Position numbers and translations under genes: made by a program
Assembly (NCBI GenBank): GCA_964573245.1
Contig: CAZNJA010000042.1
Span: 1 to 11,699, forward strand
From: an uncultured bacterium
Lineage (GTDB): Bacteria; CAIJMQ01
Reading direction: 5' to 3'
DNA: 11,699 nucleotides
Notes under the pieces: model-generated
What the model was told of the DNA's origin: nothing
The model's input: the letters and a program-made list of their open reading frames with translations, nothing else
Database searches by the model: none
Part shown: piece after piece, positions 1,581 through 10,988 of the stretch
Layout: each line of letters opens with the position of its first letter
Position numbering within the stretch: position 1 is the first letter of the stretch

Positions 1581-2486
1581 TTAAGCCCTCGGATGTGTTT
1601 TATCGTATATTTTTTTAAGTCTCGTAGTTGTCAAATGCGTATAAATTTGTGTAGTTGATAAAGAAGCATGCCCAAGTAGTTCTTGCACCGCCCTAAGGTC
1701 TGCACCCCGTTCCAAAAGGTGGGTCGCGAAACTGTGACGGAAACTATGAACGGAAACATTCTTTTTTATTGCCGCTTCTTTTATATAATCATGGACAATT
1801 TTTTTTACACTTTCCGTAGAAAGTCTCCCGCCCCAATTGTTCAAAAATAATGCTTCTTTATTTACACTCAAATCATTTCTGACCGAAACGAAGAAAGAAT
1901 TTCTTTTATTGAAATATTTGCTTAGCGCTTCAAGCGCTTTATCTCCGACCGGAACTATTCTTTCCTTTCTCCCCTTTCCCTTTACTTTTACAGTTCCGCC
2001 CACGAAATCTATACTGTCAATATTCATTCCGACAAGTTCGGAAACGCGGACTCCGGTCGAATACAGCGTTTCCAACATAGCTTTATCTCTTATACTTAAG
2101 TGGTCATTTCCCGGTAAAGAAAGAATTGTTTCGATTTCCTGAACGCTCATTGGTTCAGGCAAAGTTCCTTTTTTTTTAGGACTGAAAATAAGAGAACAAG
2201 GATTGGAACTTATAAATTCGTTTCTAATAGCAAATTTAAAAAATGACCGAAGAGCGGCAATTTTCCTTCCCATAGAGCTTGAACTATAACCATCACTATG
2301 AAGAGTCGTTAAAAAATCTCTTATATGCGAAGTCTGGATTTGTTGTAATTTTACCGTCGGATAATACTCACTCAAAAATTTATTGAACTGTTCAAGGTCG
2401 GTTCTATAACTTATCAAAGTGTTCTGCGGCAAATTCCGCTCAATTTTCAAAAACTTTATAAATTGCTCTATTTTTTCTTTCTCCAT
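1581..2486 (-). CDS. xerC: Tyrosine recombinase XerC (XerC/XerD family)
   Basis: 301 aa. N-terminal domain (ERNL..NT..SYRTDL) and all catalytic residues present: TGVRVSEL (R), GKGRKER (K), HSFRHSFATH (HxxR), LLGH, TQIYTH (Y). C-terminus YDKTHPRA. Directly downstream of topA, the common topA-xerC synteny. Confidence 0.9.
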   Translation of the reverse strand: MEKEKIEQFIKFLKIERNLPQNTLISYRTDLEQFNKFLSEYYPTVKLQQIQTSHIRDFLTTLHSDGYSSSSMGRKIAALRSFFKFAIRNEFISSNPCSLIFSPKKKGTLPEPMSVQEIETILSLPGNDHLSIRDKAMLETLYSTGVRVSELVGMNIDSIDFVGGTVKVKGKGRKERIVPVGDKALEALSKYFNKRNSFFVSVRNDLSVNKEALFLNNWGGRLSTESVKKIVHDYIKEAAIKKNVSVHSFRHSFATHLLERGADLRAVQELLGHASLSTTQIYTHLTTTRLKKIYDKTHPRA

Positions 2487-2515
2487 TATTTTTAAATTAT
2501 GAAAGCATATAAAAC

Positions 2516-4558
2516 TTATTTGTTTTCTGTTGTATGTTCTCCGGCATCTATTGCCTTAGCTGTATCCTCTGTTTTTTGTTCCGGTAAATATGAAGCGATC
2601 CACCTGCATTGGGGATAATTACTACATCCGTAAAAAACCCTGCCCCTTTTATTCTTCATTTCCACTACTTCGCCGCCGCAATTTTGGTTCGGGCATTTTA
2701 TTCCGACTTTTTTCAGCATCCGTTTTGTATATCGGCATTTGGGGAAATTAGAACACGCTAAAAACTGCCCGAACCTGCCTTCTTTTATTATTAAATTCCC
2801 ACCGCATTCGGGACATTTTTCATCGGTAATTATTTCTCTTTCTTTCTTGATATCTTTCATATCCACCGAAGCTTTTTTCAAAAGTGGCTCGAAAGATATA
2901 TAGAAATCTTTTACCATATCCGACCATTTTCTCTTGCCTTCTTCTACTTCATCGAGATTTTGCTCCATTTCCGAAGTGAATTTCTCATAAAAAATAGTCG
3001 GGAAATTTTCAATAAGCAGTTCAACTACAACCGTGCCGAGTTCCGAAGGATGAAGTTCGCCTTTTATGCCTCTTATATAATCCCTGTCTTTAATCGTGTT
3101 CATTATCGGAGCATAAGTTGAGGGACGGCCTATCCCCTCTTCTTCCAGTTTTCTTATAAGCGTTCCTTCACTGTAGCGGGGAGGCGGCTGCGTAAATTTT
3201 TGTTCAAGTACGACTTCCAGTAAATTCACTTTTTCCTGCTCTTTCAAAACAGGCAAAACATTCGTTTCTTTGCTGCCGTTTTCTTCTTCGTCCTTTTTGA
3301 AAAGAACTGTATAACCATCGAATTTAGTCTTTCTGCTTTCTGTTACGAAAACATAATCTCCGCCTTCCAATTTTAGGATAGTGACTTCCGTTATTTTCGG
3401 AGCCATTTGCGAAGCCAAAAATCGGTTATATATCAATGTGTATAACCTTAATTGATAAGGGTCCAGATATTCTTTTATTTTATCGGGAGAAAACTCCACA
3501 TTTGTCGGGCGTATAGCTTCATGCGCTTCCTGCGCGCCTTTCTTTGCTTTATATTTAGGAGGAGCGGACGGCAGATATTTCTTGCCAAATTTTTTAAGAA
3601 TAAATTCTCTGGCTTTTTCTTGAGCGCTCTTGCTAAGGTTGAAAGAATCCGTTCTCATGTAAGTAATAAGCCCTGTAATTTCATCGCCGATATTAACGCC
3701 TTCGTATAGTTGCTGGGCTACTCTCATTGTCCTTTGGGCAGAGAACCTGAAAACACGATGCGCTTGCTGTTGCAGCGAACTCGTTATAAAAGGCGCCGGA
3801 GATTTTCTTTTTTCCTCTTTGGATATAATGCTTTTGACAATGAAATTTTGTTTTTCGGCATCAGTTTTTATGTTAGGTGCTTCATCTTTGGAGAATTTTG
3901 TGATTTTTTCTCCTTTGAATTCTTTGAGTTGAGAAGAAAATTCTTCGCCACCCTGATTGGAAAATTTGCCGAAAATTAAATAATACTCTTCAGAAACAAA
4001 AGCATTTATTTCTTTTTCCCTATCCACGACGATTTTCAAAGCAACCGTCTGCACTCTTCCCGCAGAAAGACCTTTCCTTACCTTTTTCCATAGCAAAGGC
4101 GAAATTTTATAACCGACAAGTCGGTCTAAAACTCTCCTTGCTTTTCCTGAATCTACTTTATTTTCGTCTATCGAAGTAATATGTTCCAGCGAATCTTTTA
4201 TCGCGGAAGACGTAATTTCGTGGAACAGGATTCTTGAAATACTCTTATTAACAGGTTTTATTTCTTCGGCTAAATGAGCGCATATTGTCTCGCCTTCCCT
4301 ATCGGCATCAGCCGCAAGTAAAACTTGAGAAGATTTTTTGGCTTCGCTTTTTAATTCTTTTAGTATTTTCTTTTTGCCCTTAATAACAGTGTAGGTGGGC
4401 TCAAATCCGTGTTCAACATCAATCCCCAATTTTCTGTCCGGCAAATTTTTTATATGCCCCATGCTCGCGCTGACCCTATATCCTTTCCCTAGAAAGGATT
4501 GAATGGTTCGCGCTTTAGCTGGAGACTCTACTATTACAAGTGCATTTTTTTTAGGCAT
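2516..4558 (-). CDS. topA: DNA topoisomerase I (type IA)
   Basis: 680 aa. TOPRIM motifs LVIVESPAKA and DADREGE, SAGRVQ, active site ITYMRTDS, AQEAHEAIRPT, GIGRPSTYA. Two C-terminal zinc ribbons (CPECGG...CSNFPKC; CPNQNCGG...CSNYPQC). SD GAAAGGA upstream. Confidence 0.98.
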   Translation of the reverse strand: MPKKNALVIVESPAKARTIQSFLGKGYRVSASMGHIKNLPDRKLGIDVEHGFEPTYTVIKGKKKILKELKSEAKKSSQVLLAADADREGETICAHLAEEIKPVNKSISRILFHEITSSAIKDSLEHITSIDENKVDSGKARRVLDRLVGYKISPLLWKKVRKGLSAGRVQTVALKIVVDREKEINAFVSEEYYLIFGKFSNQGGEEFSSQLKEFKGEKITKFSKDEAPNIKTDAEKQNFIVKSIISKEEKRKSPAPFITSSLQQQAHRVFRFSAQRTMRVAQQLYEGVNIGDEITGLITYMRTDSFNLSKSAQEKAREFILKKFGKKYLPSAPPKYKAKKGAQEAHEAIRPTNVEFSPDKIKEYLDPYQLRLYTLIYNRFLASQMAPKITEVTILKLEGGDYVFVTESRKTKFDGYTVLFKKDEEENGSKETNVLPVLKEQEKVNLLEVVLEQKFTQPPPRYSEGTLIRKLEEEGIGRPSTYAPIMNTIKDRDYIRGIKGELHPSELGTVVVELLIENFPTIFYEKFTSEMEQNLDEVEEGKRKWSDMVKDFYISFEPLLKKASVDMKDIKKEREIITDEKCPECGGNLIIKEGRFGQFLACSNFPKCRYTKRMLKKVGIKCPNQNCGGEVVEMKNKRGRVFYGCSNYPQCRWIASYLPEQKTEDTAKAIDAGEHTTENK

Positions 4559-5317: not shown

Positions 5318-5348
5318 AAGAATTAAGAAATAAGAATTAAGTATTAAG
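5318..5348. repeat. Heptamer tandem array (AAGWAWT)n at the 3' end of the four-helix-bundle gene
   Basis: aagaatt aagaaat aagaatt aagtatt aag (5318-5348), decaying into aagttt aacactt. It overlaps the gene's last codons and TAA stop. Confidence 0.85.
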
Positions 5349-5690
5349 TTTAACACTTAACCCATAAATCATCTTACCTACTTCCTCCGAATTAACAGTT
5401 AATTTTTCAAATTTTTCATTTTCAATATATGACAAATCTCTACTTAAAATTAGATAGTATTTTAATTCTTCTAAAGAACCTTCTGCTATATTAAGAAAAT
5501 GCCGATAATCTTTGTTAGACCTTCTTTTAAATCCTTCAACTATATTCGCAGCTACAGATATTGAGGCTCTTCTCATCTGTGAAATCAAACCAAATTTTTC
5601 TCCTGAAGGAAACTTATTTGTTACCTTATATATTTCTATAACCAATCTATGCGCTTTCTTCCAAACTTCTAAACCTTGAAATGTTTTCAA
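5337..5690 (-). CDS. Four-helix-bundle protein (23S rRNA intervening-sequence protein / Avd-like family)
   Basis: 117 aa with the family pattern F..LEVWKKAH.L...IY..T..FP..EKFGL.SQMRRAS.SV.ANIVEG..R....Y..FL.IA.GSL.E..Y.L.LS.DL.YI. TTG start with AGGA 9 nt upstream. Confidence 0.93.
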   Translation of the reverse strand: MKTFQGLEVWKKAHRLVIEIYKVTNKFPSGEKFGLISQMRRASISVAANIVEGFKRRSNKDYRHFLNIAEGSLEELKYYLILSRDLSYIENEKFEKLTVNSEEVGKMIYGLSVKLNT

Positions 5691-5725
5691 ATTGCTTAAT
5701 CCTGAATACTTACTACTTAATTCTA
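5691..5725. repeat. Heptamer tandem array (consensus AATWCTT) at the 5' end of the four-helix-bundle gene, inverted relative to 5318-5348
   Basis: attgctt aatcctg aatactt actactt aattcta. Its reverse complement, tagaatt aagtagt aagtatt caggatt aagcaat, has the same unit as the downstream array. Confidence 0.8.
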
Positions 5726-7046: not shown

Positions 7047-7142
7047 ATGGCAAAGAAAAAAGCCAAAAAGAAAGTAGCAAAAAAGAGAAAAACCACAAAG
7101 AAAAAAACCGCAAAGAAGAAAAAGAAAGGTTCCCGTAGATAG
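7047..7142 (+). CDS. 31-aa Lys-rich basic microprotein (histone H1 tail/protamine-like)
   Basis: Hand translation: MAKKKAKKKVAKKRKTTKKKTAKKKKKGSRR*. Very strong SD AGGAGGTGA (7029-7037) 9 nt before the ATG, upstream promoter, hairpins after the stop. Not in the ORF track, presumably because it is too short. Confidence 0.8.
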   Translation: MAKKKAKKKVAKKRKTTKKKTAKKKKKGSRR

Positions 7143-9299: not shown

Positions 9300-10988
9300 C
9301 TATTTCCTTGTAGCTTTTTTTATTTCTTTTTGTTTGAGGGTTGAATAATAGGAATGTGCGAATCTGTGTGCCTCGTCGCGGACACGCGCAAGAAAACGGA
9401 ATGATGCTATTCGAGAATTGAGAATTATTGTTTTGGATGAATAAGATAAGTGGATTTTGTTCTCACCTCTTGACCTCGTTAGAAATTTACCTGCCCGCCA
9501 AAATTTGGCAGGCGGGTTTCTAACGGGTTTGGCAATTCCTATAATAGGAATATTCTCTATACCTAAGTCACCAAACACTTGTTTTGCTATGCTCACCTGC
9601 CCCTTTCCACCGTCAACAAGAACCAAATCAGGCAACTTATTTTCCGCAAGCATTCGCTTATATCTTCTTTCCAGAACTTCTTTCATCATCGTATAATCAT
9701 CTAAAGTATCGATGCTTTTAATTTTGAATTTTCGCCAATCATTTTTTGCGGCAAGTCCTTTATCAAAGACAACCACGCTTCCGACCGCGCTTTTACCCCT
9801 TATGTTGGAAATGTCGATTCCTTCCACTCTAAACGGAGAGGAAGGCAAATTCAATCTTTTTTCTAAATCAATGAACAGGTCCACCTGTTTAGGATTCAGC
9901 TCCACTTGCTCCGTTAATCTATATTTTGCGTTATCATTTGCCATCTTTAATAATTTTTTCTTGTCGCCTTTTTTAGGAACGGAAATTTTCACGGCTTTAC
10001 CTTTGGTTTTTTTCAGCCATTTTTCCAAAAGGTCTTTTTCTTTCAAAGTAACCGGCACAAATATTTCGTTGGGAATAAGAGAGCTCAATGAATAATACTG
10101 TTCTATAAAAGATAGTAGCGCTTCTTCCGCATTGGAATTCCTTTCCGCTATTAGATTGAATTTTTCCTGCGCCGACAACTTCCCGTTTCTCACTTTCAAT
10201 AAAGCAACCAACGCTTTATTCCTCTCTTGTGCAAAGCCGATGAAATCCTGACTTTCGCCTTTCAATTTAGATATTACTCGAGGATAGGATATCTTGTGGA
10301 TGGCTTGCATTTGGTCTCTTAATTTAGTGGCTTTTTCATACTCAAAGGATTCACTTGCTAAATCCATTTTCTTTTTAAGAGAAGAGAGTAGGTTCCGCGT
10401 TTCTCCTTCAAGAAACATTGAAACATTTTCTATTATTTCCATGTAATCTTTTTTCAAAACTTCTCCGCTGCAGGGACCAACGCATCTTGCAATATGATAA
10501 TTAAGACACGGCTTGCCGTCTATTTTTGTTTTTTTGCAGGTTTTGAAAAGAAAAATTCTCTGCAACAGCAGAAGAGTTCTTCTCAAGGATTTTGTGTCAG
10601 TATAGGGACCAAAATATTTTGCCGTCTTATCATTTAAGTCACGTGTTATATAGATGCTTGGAAATTCATCGGGTAAAGATATTTTTACATAGGGATAACT
10701 TTTATCATCCCTTAACATTATGTTGTATCTGGGCTTATGCTGTTTGATTAAACTACATTCCAATATCAGGGCCTCCACTGCATTAGGAGTGATGATGTAA
10801 TCTATCGAATTTGTCTTTTTAGCCAACATGGCTTCCTTGCCGAAAACCCCGCACTGTTGGAAATGAGACTTTACTCTTTTTTTAATATTTTCGGCTTTGC
10901 CTATATAAAGATAATTCTTATCCTTATCTTTAAAGATATACACTCCGCTAGAGGTAGGAAGTGTTTTTATCTTCTTCTTAATTTCCAC
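9300..10988 (-). CDS. uvrC: Excinuclease ABC subunit C, lacking the C-terminal HhH domain and carrying an in-frame palindromic insertion
   Basis: 562 aa, GTG start. GIY-YIG (GVYIF..YIGKA..IKKRV), PRYNI.LRDDKSYPY, four-Cys cluster, UVR motif (EYEKA..LRD), RNase H-like domain (EGIDISN, DDY, DLVLVDGGKGQ, RDEAHRFA). Confidence 0.96.
   Translation of the reverse strand: MEIKKKIKTLPTSSGVYIFKDKDKNYLYIGKAENIKKRVKSHFQQCGVFGKEAMLAKKTNSIDYIITPNAVEALILECSLIKQHKPRYNIMLRDDKSYPYVKISLPDEFPSIYITRDLNDKTAKYFGPYTDTKSLRRTLLLLQRIFLFKTCKKTKIDGKPCLNYHIARCVGPCSGEVLKKDYMEIIENVSMFLEGETRNLLSSLKKKMDLASESFEYEKATKLRDQMQAIHKISYPRVISKLKGESQDFIGFAQERNKALVALLKVRNGKLSAQEKFNLIAERNSNAEEALLSFIEQYYSLSSLIPNEIFVPVTLKEKDLLEKWLKKTKGKAVKISVPKKGDKKKLLKMANDNAKYRLTEQVELNPKQVDLFIDLEKRLNLPSSPFRVEGIDISNIRGKSAVGSVVVFDKGLAAKNDWRKFKIKSIDTLDDYTMMKEVLERRYKRMLAENKLPDLVLVDGGKGQVSIAKQVFGDLGIENIPIIGIAKPVRNPPAKFWRAGKFLTRSRGENKIHLSYSSKTIILNSRIASFRFLARVRDEAHRFAHSYYSTLKQKEIKKATRK
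9471..9527. repeat. Nested palindromic element inside the uvrC coding sequence
   Basis: Outer arms CGTTAGAAA (9477-9485) and TTTCTAACG (9517-9525) are perfect complements. Inner 27-nt palindrome CCTGCCCGCCAAA-A-TTTGGCAGGCGGG (9490-9516) has 11 of 13 Watson-Crick pairs. Confidence 0.85.

Follow-up and report, generated by a model that had tools for sequence, protein, structure and literature searches.

Two probable nested, very small palindromic repeats in a uvrC gene, and a dispersed 27-nt hairpin family in metagenome-assembled genomes

The closest precedents for the DNA described here are intragenic REPs and the small dispersed repeats (SDR) of cyanobacteria. SDR, which Elhai et al. reportedly described in 2008 within cyanobacteria, from heterocyst-forming members, are said to be hairpin-forming sequences of 21 to 27 nt that nest in one another and in other repeats and are thought to be mobile, with an unknown mechanism. 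REP families, for their part, are usually species or genus specific. REPs and REPINs are palindromic repeats of 20 to 40 bp that occur in many copies, mostly intergenic (Di Nocera et al. 2013, PMC3733652; Bertels & Rainey 2011, PMC3116915), and the second paper cites SDR as an unexplained class of short repeats (PMC3116915). The first paper (PMC3733652) further states that a GTAG (or CGTC) tetranucleotide is conserved at one end of REPs, that some REPs lie in frame inside genes, often those for replication and repair, that some families occur within small palindromes, and that Rickettsia palindromic elements (RPE) end in CGTC. A further source describes RPE as elements of ~150 bp that lie in frame in unrelated genes, to whose products they add peptide segments (PMC10969869). 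Among organelles, the yeast mitochondrial GC clusters are described as short GC-rich palindromes that spread in AT-rich genomes; they carry no transposase, and how they move is not understood. One of them, GC42, has duplicated AG target nucleotides on its flanks (PMC4478555). The hairpin elements of sponge mitochondria are a related organellar case (PMC2800124).

In the window, by which we mean the whole 11.7-kb stretch of DNA that was analyzed, the uvrC product has, by Pfam, the GIY-YIG, UVR, and both UvrC RNase H domains and lacks the C-terminal helix-hairpin-helix domain, and it carries extra residues directly after its GIAK motif (K487) (Table 1). The initial annotation, made from the window sequence, had put these at about 19 to 20; the extra residues are there, and comparison with empty alleles of homologues sets the figure at exactly 20 residues, or 60 nt. 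The DNA of the insert is the two-layer hairpin that had been proposed, with outer arms CGTTAGAAA and TTTCTAACG around CCTGCCCGCCAAAATTTGGCAGGCGGG. The outer 9-nt arms (9477-9485 and 9517-9525) pair exactly and are the sole exact copies in the window, and no other copy of the inner or outer element was found in its 11.7 kb. When positions 9455-9545 were folded as DNA, the native sequence gave -18.4 kcal/mol versus -8.17 +/- 2.15 for shuffles (z = -4.76), and none of 200 shuffles folded as well. A two-step deletion had also been proposed, and its first step holds: removal of the inner 27 nt keeps the frame and leaves PVRNKFLTRSR, identical to the homologue P0006, which in the protein alignment lacks the inner 27-mer. 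In the second step the outer unit is 33 nt (11 aa) and not 30 nt, because the insert amounts to 60 nt relative to the empty alleles, and the empty form in homologues reads GIAK-GENKIHL instead of GIAK-RGENKIHL. The 3' half of the outer element comprises a loop remnant, an arm, and a 9-nt stretch, AGGTCAAGA, past the exact arm. We consider it likely that the 60-nt insert represents two nested insertions of very small palindromic repeats into a loop at the surface of the RNase H-like endonuclease domain of UvrC.

Table 1. Coordinates of uvrC and of the parts of its insert in the window
Feature	Positions	Strand	Basis and content
uvrC	9300-10988	minus	562 aa; ORF translation, Pfam, homologues, PDB 2NRR/2NRT alignment
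Whole in-frame insert, 60 nt	9468-9527	minus	Codons P488-R507 = PVRNPPAKFWRAGKFLTRSR; missing from empty alleles GIAK-GENK
Outer element, 5' half (gene sense) CCCGTTAGAAA	9517-9527	minus	Codes PVR and supplies bases 1 and 2 of codon N491
Outer element, 3' half (gene sense) TAAATTTCTAACGAGGTCAAGA	9468-9489	minus	Supplies base 3 of codon G500, then codes KFLTRSR
Inner 27-nt hairpin element	9490-9516		Plus strand reads CCTGCCCGCC-AAAATTT-GGCAGGCGGG; on the minus strand, the final base of codon N491, eight codons for PPAKFWRA, and two bases of codon G500

The inner element almost certainly belongs to a dispersed family. With a degenerate fixed-gap pattern we matched 102 sites at 99 loci in 40 genome assemblies from about ten phylum-level groups of uncultured bacteria, including Bacteroidota, Chloroflexota, Omnitrophota, and Cloacimonadota, against a chance expectation below one (0.002 to 0.96 for a GC content of 40 to 70%), and the expected recurrence of the inner palindrome was thus borne out. 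All 99 loci come from metagenome-assembled genomes, no isolate genome having matched, and copies are most numerous in the assemblies JANMME01, JADJFA01, JBGPRV01, and CAZPGJ01. The flanks of the sites speak against their derivation from a single contaminating sequence, for which identical extended flanks would be expected throughout. The palindrome is imperfect, with one T.G and one C.A opposition per strand, and the same two stem imperfections are kept at 94 of the 102 sites; the family is near-identical in sequence across phyla, and the 27-mer of the window recurs unchanged at one site, in frame in an RseC-like (RseC/MucC) gene (locus L040). Three Chloroflexi/Dehalococcoidia assemblies (JBAUEM01, JBEKTM01, and CAISEW01) have one orthologous copy in common, and the reading frame of one of these copies has a Pfam terminase domain. 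Of the 99 loci, 97 are single-site; L044 and L074 have two copies 64 to 65 nt apart, in a tandem of host palindrome plus core (the 27-mer), and L045 has two copies 2.4 kb apart. A CRISPR repeat was rejected as an identity for the family, since nearly all loci are single-site and Rfam CRISPR models score far below threshold. Phage and plasmid collections gave no significant match (lowest E value, 0.02), and the literature searched by sequence string (core, Dehalococcoidia host palindrome, and encoded peptides) yielded unrelated primers only. Of the keyword searches, one on palindromic or hairpin repeats that lie in frame in metagenome-assembled genomes brought up nothing relevant, and a broader one gave unrelated papers only. 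Under a strict threshold, heptamer tandem repeats stand beside core copies at 3 of 102 sites, compared with 12 of 3,000 controls.

Each family copy adds exactly 27 nt, in either orientation. This is seen in two palindromes that host it: among 83 matches to a Dehalococcoidia host palindrome, the center is 9 nt long in 12 and 36 nt (9 + 27) in 14, and many different small palindromes fill the same center, while among 34 matches to a Saprospiraceae-type host palindrome the center measures 2, 29, 56, or 83 nt in 13, 15, 2, and 1 cases, respectively (32, 50, and 60 nt in the remaining three). In the latter host the 27-mer nests in copies of itself, up to three deep, and CTT^GGCG surrounds the landing site both in that host and in the core. 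Complementary flanks (at least 8 of 12 positions) occur at 32 of 102 sites versus 184 of 2,997 controls. Insertion into the loop of an older palindrome, as had been proposed for uvrC, is therefore consistent with the family at large, for which landing at a center is usual. There is no sign of target duplication: direct repeats of 2 nt flank 7 of the 102 sites versus 6.6% of controls, and those of 3 and 4 nt flank none.

These properties set the 27-mer beside, and apart from, the systems introduced above. Like REPs and REPINs, it is short and imperfectly palindromic, occurs in many dispersed copies, and lies mostly outside genes; unlike REPs, it crosses many phyla nearly unchanged and is a fixed unit that nests repeatedly in its own copies, and neither it nor the outer element of the window has GTAG or CGTC, GTAG occurring only in the Saprospiraceae-type host palindrome. 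It resembles SDR, as these are reportedly described, in behavior only (27 nt, nesting up to three deep), and its hosts differ, with no cyanobacterial title among the 99 loci. Unlike the GC clusters, it has bacterial rather than organellar hosts, and its flanking direct repeats of 2 to 4 nt are no commoner than in controls. Unlike MITEs, which have the terminal inverted repeats of a parent insertion sequence, target-site duplications, and lengths of 70 to 300 bp, it is a 27-nt unit by whose length host centers step.

Gene insertion is the exception for core copies, which are rarer in open frames of at least 150 codons (35 of 82 sites) than random positions are (81%). All six frames of the 27-mer are free of stop codons. 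In-frame copies were found in 13 or more genes with Pfam support, which are of 11 kinds: those for Lnt, PheT, TilS (two loci), HypF, Mfd (with two family copies, in L063), Psd, and SpoU, together with an ABC ATPase, a terminase, a secretion-tail domain, and a 23S-IVP gene. In adding peptide segments to unrelated genes as in-frame palindromic repeats, the elements are like RPE; unlike RPE, which are about 100 to 150 bp long, are confined to Rickettsia, and encode a conserved family-specific peptide, they are 27 and 33 nt long and occur in Omnitrophota-like and other bacteria.

As to movement, the hairpin could be cut out and rejoined as single-stranded DNA by a trans-acting enzyme, either HUH-type or another structure-specific nuclease/ligase, that would act at transiently single-stranded DNA where hairpins extrude; such action would explain the preference for the loops of other hairpins. 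Among the 121 ORFs nearest to core copies (those within 700 nt of the 102 copies, picked from 402 ORFs within 3 kb), we found no Y1/HUH, DDE, or TnpB transposase and one XerC/D-like integrase. The initial annotation's link to REPs and RAYT (HUH) transposases found no support among these ORFs, none of which has a Y1 transposase domain, and the 27-mer lacks the GTAG or CGTC tag. The lack of a transposase next to the 102 copies is expected if the family spreads without any transposase, through template switching between hairpins during repair or replication (gene conversion among palindromes). Such spread is also favored by the many copies at the centers of related palindromes sharing CTT^GGCG around the site and by the many different small palindromes at one Dehalococcoidia host center. 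However, the 27-mer also sits in unrelated flanks without shared homology (the AT-rich hairpin of the window, RseC, Lnt, PheT, and terminase), local templated repair leaves its near-identity across phyla unexplained, and the unit is always exactly 27 nt, so that we regard transposase-free spread as unlikely. A bolder reading, which we hold to be somewhat less likely than not, is that the 27-mer would be an undescribed, horizontally spreading "nano-element" that enters the loops of other hairpins, its own copies included, with no target duplication, that is cut and joined as single-stranded DNA by a trans-acting enzyme, that has reached about ten phylum-level groups, and that generates, with lineage-specific partners such as the 33-nt element, loops of 9 and 11 residues in essential proteins. 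The single-strand cut-and-join mechanism specifically is, in our view, also less likely than not.

The outer element is likely a dispersed element as well, as a comparison of the 14 closest UvrC homologues suggests; these were compared as proteins, with the palindromy and boundaries of the inserts in P0004, P0006, P0009, and P0011 inferred from peptides. At the one site that is filled in the window, they display empty, single-layer, and two different double-layer forms. P0005, P0007, P0008, and more distant homologues are empty; P0006, reading GIAK-PVRNKFLTRSR-GENK, is the single-layer allele predicted beforehand; and the double-layer forms are those of P0001 and of P0004 (PVR-PVKRHVSNGFK-NGFLTKSR), in which a different insert of 11 aa occupies the same center as the inner insert of the window. 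P0006 (filled) and P0007 (empty) share 86% identity (493/570) and fall with P0011 (filled) in one clade with support of 100/99; inside the clade of seven, the branching of the UvrC tree does not tell repeated gain from repeated precise loss. The peptide PVRN is common to P0004, P0006, and P0011 at the window site and to P0009 at another, where SRPVRNKFLNG lies at residues 301 to 311 within an 11-aa insert; recurrence of the outer palindrome, also foreseen, was thus observed at the peptide level. All internal indel blocks of at least 4 aa in the alignment are 9 or 11 aa or sums of these (9, 9, 11, 9, 11, 9, 9, 11, 20, and 22), the 11-aa class including P0008, P0009, and the inner insert of P0004, and inserts of 9 aa that resemble the core are found elsewhere in UvrC, in P0011 (PPAEYCRAG) and P0007 (CPPKLQWR). 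The P0011 protein stops at PVRNGF inside the outer element, and its record is labeled partial, which suggests a contig end; if so, the stop fits the tendency of assemblies to break at repeats.

An origin of the outer palindrome within uvrC itself, by a template-switch or snap-back replication error, with the inner 27-mer alone being dispersed, would account for two observations: all occurrences but one are at a single orthologous site, and no second DNA copy was found in the window or, in a search for the motif exactly or with one mismatch per arm, in the 1.08 Mb of the 99 loci, which is a weak test given that these are mostly from other phyla. We nevertheless consider a local origin improbable. 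PVRNKFL recurs in P0009 at another UvrC site, one of two proteins as similar as P0006 and P0007 has the element and the other lacks it, the 11-aa size class recurs, and the end of P0011, if a contig end, is a break typical of repeats. Further, the palindrome did not arise by inverted copying of the gene sequence beside it, because the empty alleles have neither arm, and a snap-back origin from such sequence was rejected on that ground. An attC-like hairpin was likewise considered and rejected. attC sites run RYYYAAC ... GTTRRRY, and GTTAGAA ... TTCTAAC here is the opposite arrangement.

In the proposed course of events, a 33-nt AT-rich, lineage-specific hairpin element would first have entered between the K487 and G508 codons (window numbering) and then been inherited, lost, or regained among close relatives, and the 27-nt GC-rich hairpin element would later have entered the center of the 33-nt hairpin in the window lineage only. 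We infer this order, outer first and inner second, from protein alleles. As 27 and 33 are multiples of three, and as the 27-mer is free of stops in six frames and the outer element has none in the frame read here, the uvrC frame stays open and gains 9 + 11 residues. The 27-mer may be capable of precise excision as well, and this would account for the occurrence of empty and filled alleles in UvrC proteins that are 86% identical.

By prediction, the added residues make up a disordered loop that lies clear of the conserved catalytic residues. Placement of the insert on a structure model, as had been called for, put it in a coil between strands 482 to 486 and 511 to 514 of the AlphaFold2 model, with a pLDDT below 50 for residues 491 to 507 and above 90 for the flanks, and in the alignment to the solved Thermotoga maritima UvrC (PDB 2NRR/2NRT) the insert falls between GLAK and EIHL. 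That the 20 residues are instead an adaptive, lineage-specific loop of UvrC, or that the DNA specifies a regulatory hairpin at the RNA level, with palindromy incidental, is very improbable, even though the frame is intact, the insert lies in a tolerated loop, intragenic REPs are often in replication and repair genes (PMC3733652), and Mfd in L063 also has two copies: very close relatives do without the insert, the model gives it no confident structure, and the same 27-mer is found mostly between genes and in unrelated genes. At the RNA level, Rfam gave only sub-threshold, microRNA-like hairpin matches, so that a known structured RNA was rejected for want of a match at gathering score, and the terminator scan called no site. 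An artefact of assembly or sequencing, through chimerism or hairpin-induced misassembly, is scarcely credible, short as the contig of the window is and although every family match is from a metagenome assembly, since orthologous UvrC inserts are present in independent assemblies from different sources, three Chloroflexi/Dehalococcoidia assemblies have one orthologous copy, family copies also lie in contigs of several hundred kilobases from different assemblers, and reading frames stay open.

Few mobile DNA units on record would be smaller than the 27-mer, provided that it moves as a unit. The 27-mer behaves in an unusually clean way, with exact 27-nt steps, three-deep nesting, and near-identity across phyla, and it bears on the question of what moves very short palindromic repeats. 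For annotation, many of the peptides labeled as hypothetical proteins, and odd loops, in metagenome-assembled genomes may be read-through elements. For the proteins themselves, such elements offer a route by which essential ones (UvrC, Mfd, PheT, TilS, Lnt, and HypF) would gain surface loops in steps of 9 and 11 residues.

The DNA beneath the extra residues of the window's UvrC is the two-layer hairpin described in the initial annotation. Between GIAK (K487) and GENKIHL the protein reads PVRNPPAKFWRAGKFLTRSR, and the coding DNA consists of exact outer arms enclosing a 27-nt inner element; folded as single-stranded DNA, positions 9455 to 9545 reach -18.4 kcal/mol, versus -8.17 ± 2.15 in shuffled versions (z = -4.76), and none of the 200 shuffles folded equally well. 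The outer arms have no further exact copies within the window. The insert, put at about 19 to 20 residues, is indeed present and measures exactly 60 nt, or 20 codons (9468 to 9527). The outer unit is 33 nt and not 30 nt, and the inner palindrome departs from perfect symmetry at one T.G and one C.A opposition per strand. The C-terminal helix-hairpin-helix domain is absent from this UvrC (P0001) and its nearest relatives (P0004 to P0008 and P0010; 547 to 562 aa) and is kept in the slightly more distant P0009 and P0012 to P0016 (about 600 aa).

Features of the window's uvrC gene and inserts found in UvrC homologues
Feature	Location or carrier	Detail
uvrC	9300-10988, minus strand	562 aa; Pfam: GIY-YIG, UVR motif, both UvrC RNase H-like domains
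Outer arms	9477-9485 and 9517-9525	CGTTAGAAA / TTTCTAACG; exact, 9 nt each
Inner element	9490-9516	CCTGCCCGCC-AAAATTT-GGCAGGCGGG; enclosed by outer arms
Empty allele	P0005, P0007, P0008, P0009, P0010, P0012-P0016 and all more distant aligned sequences	nothing between GIAK and GENK
Single-layer allele	P0006	GIAK-PVRNKFLTRSR-GENK
Truncated allele	P0011	ends in PVRNGF; record labelled "partial"
Double layer, different inner insert	P0004	PVR-PVKRHVSNGFK-NGFLTKSR
Double-layer allele	P0001 (window)	PVRN-PPAKFWRAG-KFLTRSR
Inserts after GIAK		11, 11 + 9, 11 + 11 residues
Insert after TRDL	P0006; P0010; P0008	PTTNKQAGK (9); SAKNRQAGL (9); HTKNLPTRPPL (11)
Insert after GYA	P0007	SACPPKLQW (9)
Insert after EQYYS	P0009	SRPVRNKFLNG (11)
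Insert after LSSL	P0011	PPAEYCRAG (9)
Insert after TREI	P0016	PSHLRKRGG (9)

Close UvrC homologues were obtained from a protein collection search, the few named ones being Candidatus Ratteibacteria or Omnitrophica, and their alignment yielded both the empty and the single-layer alleles that had been anticipated, with P0006 matching the predicted single-layer peptide exactly. P0011 stops inside the outer element, and should this stop coincide with the end of its contig, it would be consistent with an assembly broken at repeated sequence. In a maximum-likelihood tree built without the insert columns, four filled and three empty UvrC proteins group in a single seven-member clade (support 99/96), within which the filled P0006 and P0011 and the empty P0007 are closely joined (support 100/99; end branches 0.035 to 0.072); P0006 and P0007 share 86% identity (493/570). 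The GIAK site requires two or more events, whether gains or precise losses, a choice beyond the resolution of the tree.

When the 14 closest homologues are aligned, all internal indel blocks spanning 4 residues or more have a length of 9 or 11 residues or of a sum of these. The P0009 insert, which lies elsewhere in UvrC, also contains the outer-element peptide PVRNKFL; the 33-nt element is therefore not limited to one locus and, as judged from its peptide, recurs beyond the GIAK site. The inserts PPAEYCRAG (P0011) and CPPKLQWR (P0007) resemble the 27-mer frames PPAKPWRA and CPPRLGRR. As read from its sequence, the outer element has only one stop-free frame per orientation, and the window's uvrC reads it in that frame, which is what the survival of translatable insertions alone would predict.

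A sequence scan identified the inner 27-mer as one member of a dispersed family that spans multiple phyla, and the expectation that this palindrome would recur elsewhere was borne out. The degenerate pattern CCYGCCYGCCAANNNTTGGCRGGCRGG, scanned against a species-representative genome collection (596 Gb), matched at least 102 sites in 99 loci, from 100 stretches among the matches listed, where 0.002 to 0.96 chance matches are expected (GC 40 to 70%). Among the matches listed, 40 assemblies contributed loci (up to 13 from one of them), every assembly being a metagenome-assembled genome, with titles naming Saprospiraceae, Lewinellaceae, Chitinophagales, Cyclobacteriaceae, Chloroflexi, Dehalococcoidia, Omnitrophota, Cloacimonadota, KSB1, WOR-3, Elusimicrobia, Falkowbacteria, Methylomirabilis, and one Pseudomonadota; the commonest form, CCTGCCCGCCAAGGCTTGGCAGGCGGG, occupies 65 of the 102 sites, the two stem imperfections are kept at 94, and only 1 is a perfect palindrome. 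The window's 27-mer differs from the commonest form in only three loop bases, and its exact sequence lies in an Omnitrophota assembly (locus L040), where an RseC/MucC-family gene carries it in frame around codon 26; the window contig is absent from the scanned collection, and this sole same-loop site has other flanks. Phage and plasmid collections gave no significant match to the element (lowest E-value, 0.02), no Rfam family matched, and no terminator-like site was called.

The 27-mer is a fixed 27-nt unit without target duplication: of the 102 sites, 7 are flanked by an exact 2-nt direct repeat and none by one of 3 or 4 nt (controls, 6.6%, 2.2%, and 0.6% for 2, 3, and 4 nt). A Dehalococcoidia host palindrome, GTCATTGCGAG...GCAATC, has 83 matches in the loci, its centre being 9 nt in 12 matches, 36 nt (9 + 27, with unambiguous boundaries) in 14, and occupied by other small palindromes of 15 to 20 nt in 38 more. 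The centre of a Saprospiraceae-type host palindrome (34 matches) measures 2 nt (13 matches), 29 nt (15), 56 nt (2), or 83 nt (1), steps of exactly 27 showing that the 27-mer nests up to three deep; the remaining three centres are 32, 50, and 60 nt. Nesting includes copies of the 27-mer itself, at CCTGCCCGCC^AAGG, and both orientations occur at the same Saprospiraceae-type host site. Mutually complementary flanks (at least 8 of 12) were found at 32/102 sites versus 184/2997 control positions. Because the 27-mer is so frequently placed at palindrome centres, its arrangement within a hairpin in the window is usual for the family, in agreement with the earlier proposal that the inner element targeted the loop of another hairpin.

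Several loci show further local structure. L059 holds the three-deep nest with the 83-nt centre (about 1030 to 1130), and near 10001 in L013 a 27-mer is split by another palindrome (65-nt centre). The host palindrome and core are tandemly duplicated with a 64- to 65-nt period in L044 (3688 to 3778) and L074 (10001 to 10092), a likeness to a CRISPR array that is superficial, as there are only two units. Heptamer-like tandem repeats beside the core passed a strict threshold at 3/102 sites versus 12/3000 controls (flanks of L008, L055, and L093) and were seen by eye in the flanks of L004, L075, L077, and L082. In five Chloroflexi/Dehalococcoidia loci (L020, L029, L034, L062, and L065) the core has a CCCCTCTTAAG-N-TAAGAGGGG palindrome on one side and, on the other, GGAGTTATG, a sequence resembling a ribosome-binding site together with a start codon.

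Elsewhere in the window, a 23S-rRNA-intervening-sequence-protein gene that also matches a bAvd-like model (5337 to 5690) lies between hisF and hisB, flanked by 30-nt inverted repeats (5319 to 5348 and 5695 to 5724; 83% complementary), and 5319 to 5724 looks like a small inserted cassette. Between cutA and a MATE gene, a 15-nt A-rich unit (family D2) is repeated four times in tandem, starting at an ATG (7047 to 7117), and the array may represent a lysine-rich short ORF. Within 1581 to 4558, an XerC/D-type tyrosine recombinase gene adjoins topA.

The data show an exact 27-nt unit without target duplication, present in both orientations and frequently at hairpin centres, together with retention of its stem imperfections, close relatives that have the site empty or filled, and near identity across phyla. 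We propose that the 27-mer hairpin may be excised and then re-joined as single-stranded DNA, at places where hairpins extrude, by a putative enzyme acting in trans. Among the 121 ORFs nearest core copies, none carried a Y1/HUH, DDE, or TnpB domain, and one was an XerC/D-like integrase. Spread without a transposase, by template switching between hairpins, is a live alternative, although the unrelated flanks of the core copies and the cross-phylum identity of the 27-mer argue against it.

Elhai et al. (2008) reportedly described cyanobacterial small dispersed repeats of 21 to 27 nt that form hairpins and are nested. According to Di Nocera et al. (2013; PMC3733652), some REP families are inserted in small palindromes, and a GTAG or CGTC tag marks REPs and Rickettsia elements, whereas the 27-mer has neither. 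Rickettsia palindromic elements likewise insert in frame but are about 150 bp long (PMC10969869), compared with 27 and 33 nt here. Yeast mitochondrial GC clusters are also GC-rich hairpins in an AT-rich genome, but they carry AG target duplications (PMC4478555). Literature searches with the core, host-palindrome, and encoded-peptide strings returned unrelated primers only, and a keyword search returned nothing relevant.

Structure modelling placed the insert within the UvrC fold. In an AlphaFold2 model from a 39-sequence alignment (mean pLDDT, 80.9), residues 491 to 507 are coil with pLDDT below 50, between strands 482 to 486 and 511 to 514, and the flanks exceed 90. The insert lies between the conserved D459 and H541 in sequence and between GLAK and EIHL of the solved Thermotoga maritima UvrC C-terminal half (2NRR/2NRT alignment). 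The low-pLDDT coil and the place of the insert in the T. maritima alignment suggest that the RNase H-like endonuclease domain tolerates it as a loop at its surface.

Neither the common nor the window form of the 27-mer contains a stop codon in any of six frames. Long open frames hold fewer core copies than chance (35/82 sites versus 81% of random positions), and 27 sites are positioned well within open frames of at least 150 codons, many of these frames being real genes by Pfam, with the element within or between domains. In-frame hosts are Lnt, PheT, TilS (two loci, different positions), HypF, Mfd, phosphatidylserine decarboxylase, a SpoU methylase, an ABC ATPase, a terminase (a terminase-type site being filled at the same site in three assemblies), a secretion-tail domain, and a 23S-rRNA-intervening-sequence protein. 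One open frame for Mfd, the transcription-repair coupling factor, holds two 27-mers (L063, 8566 and 10001). Together with the window's uvrC, Mfd fits the remark in PMC3733652 that REPs occur within genes, often ones for replication and repair.
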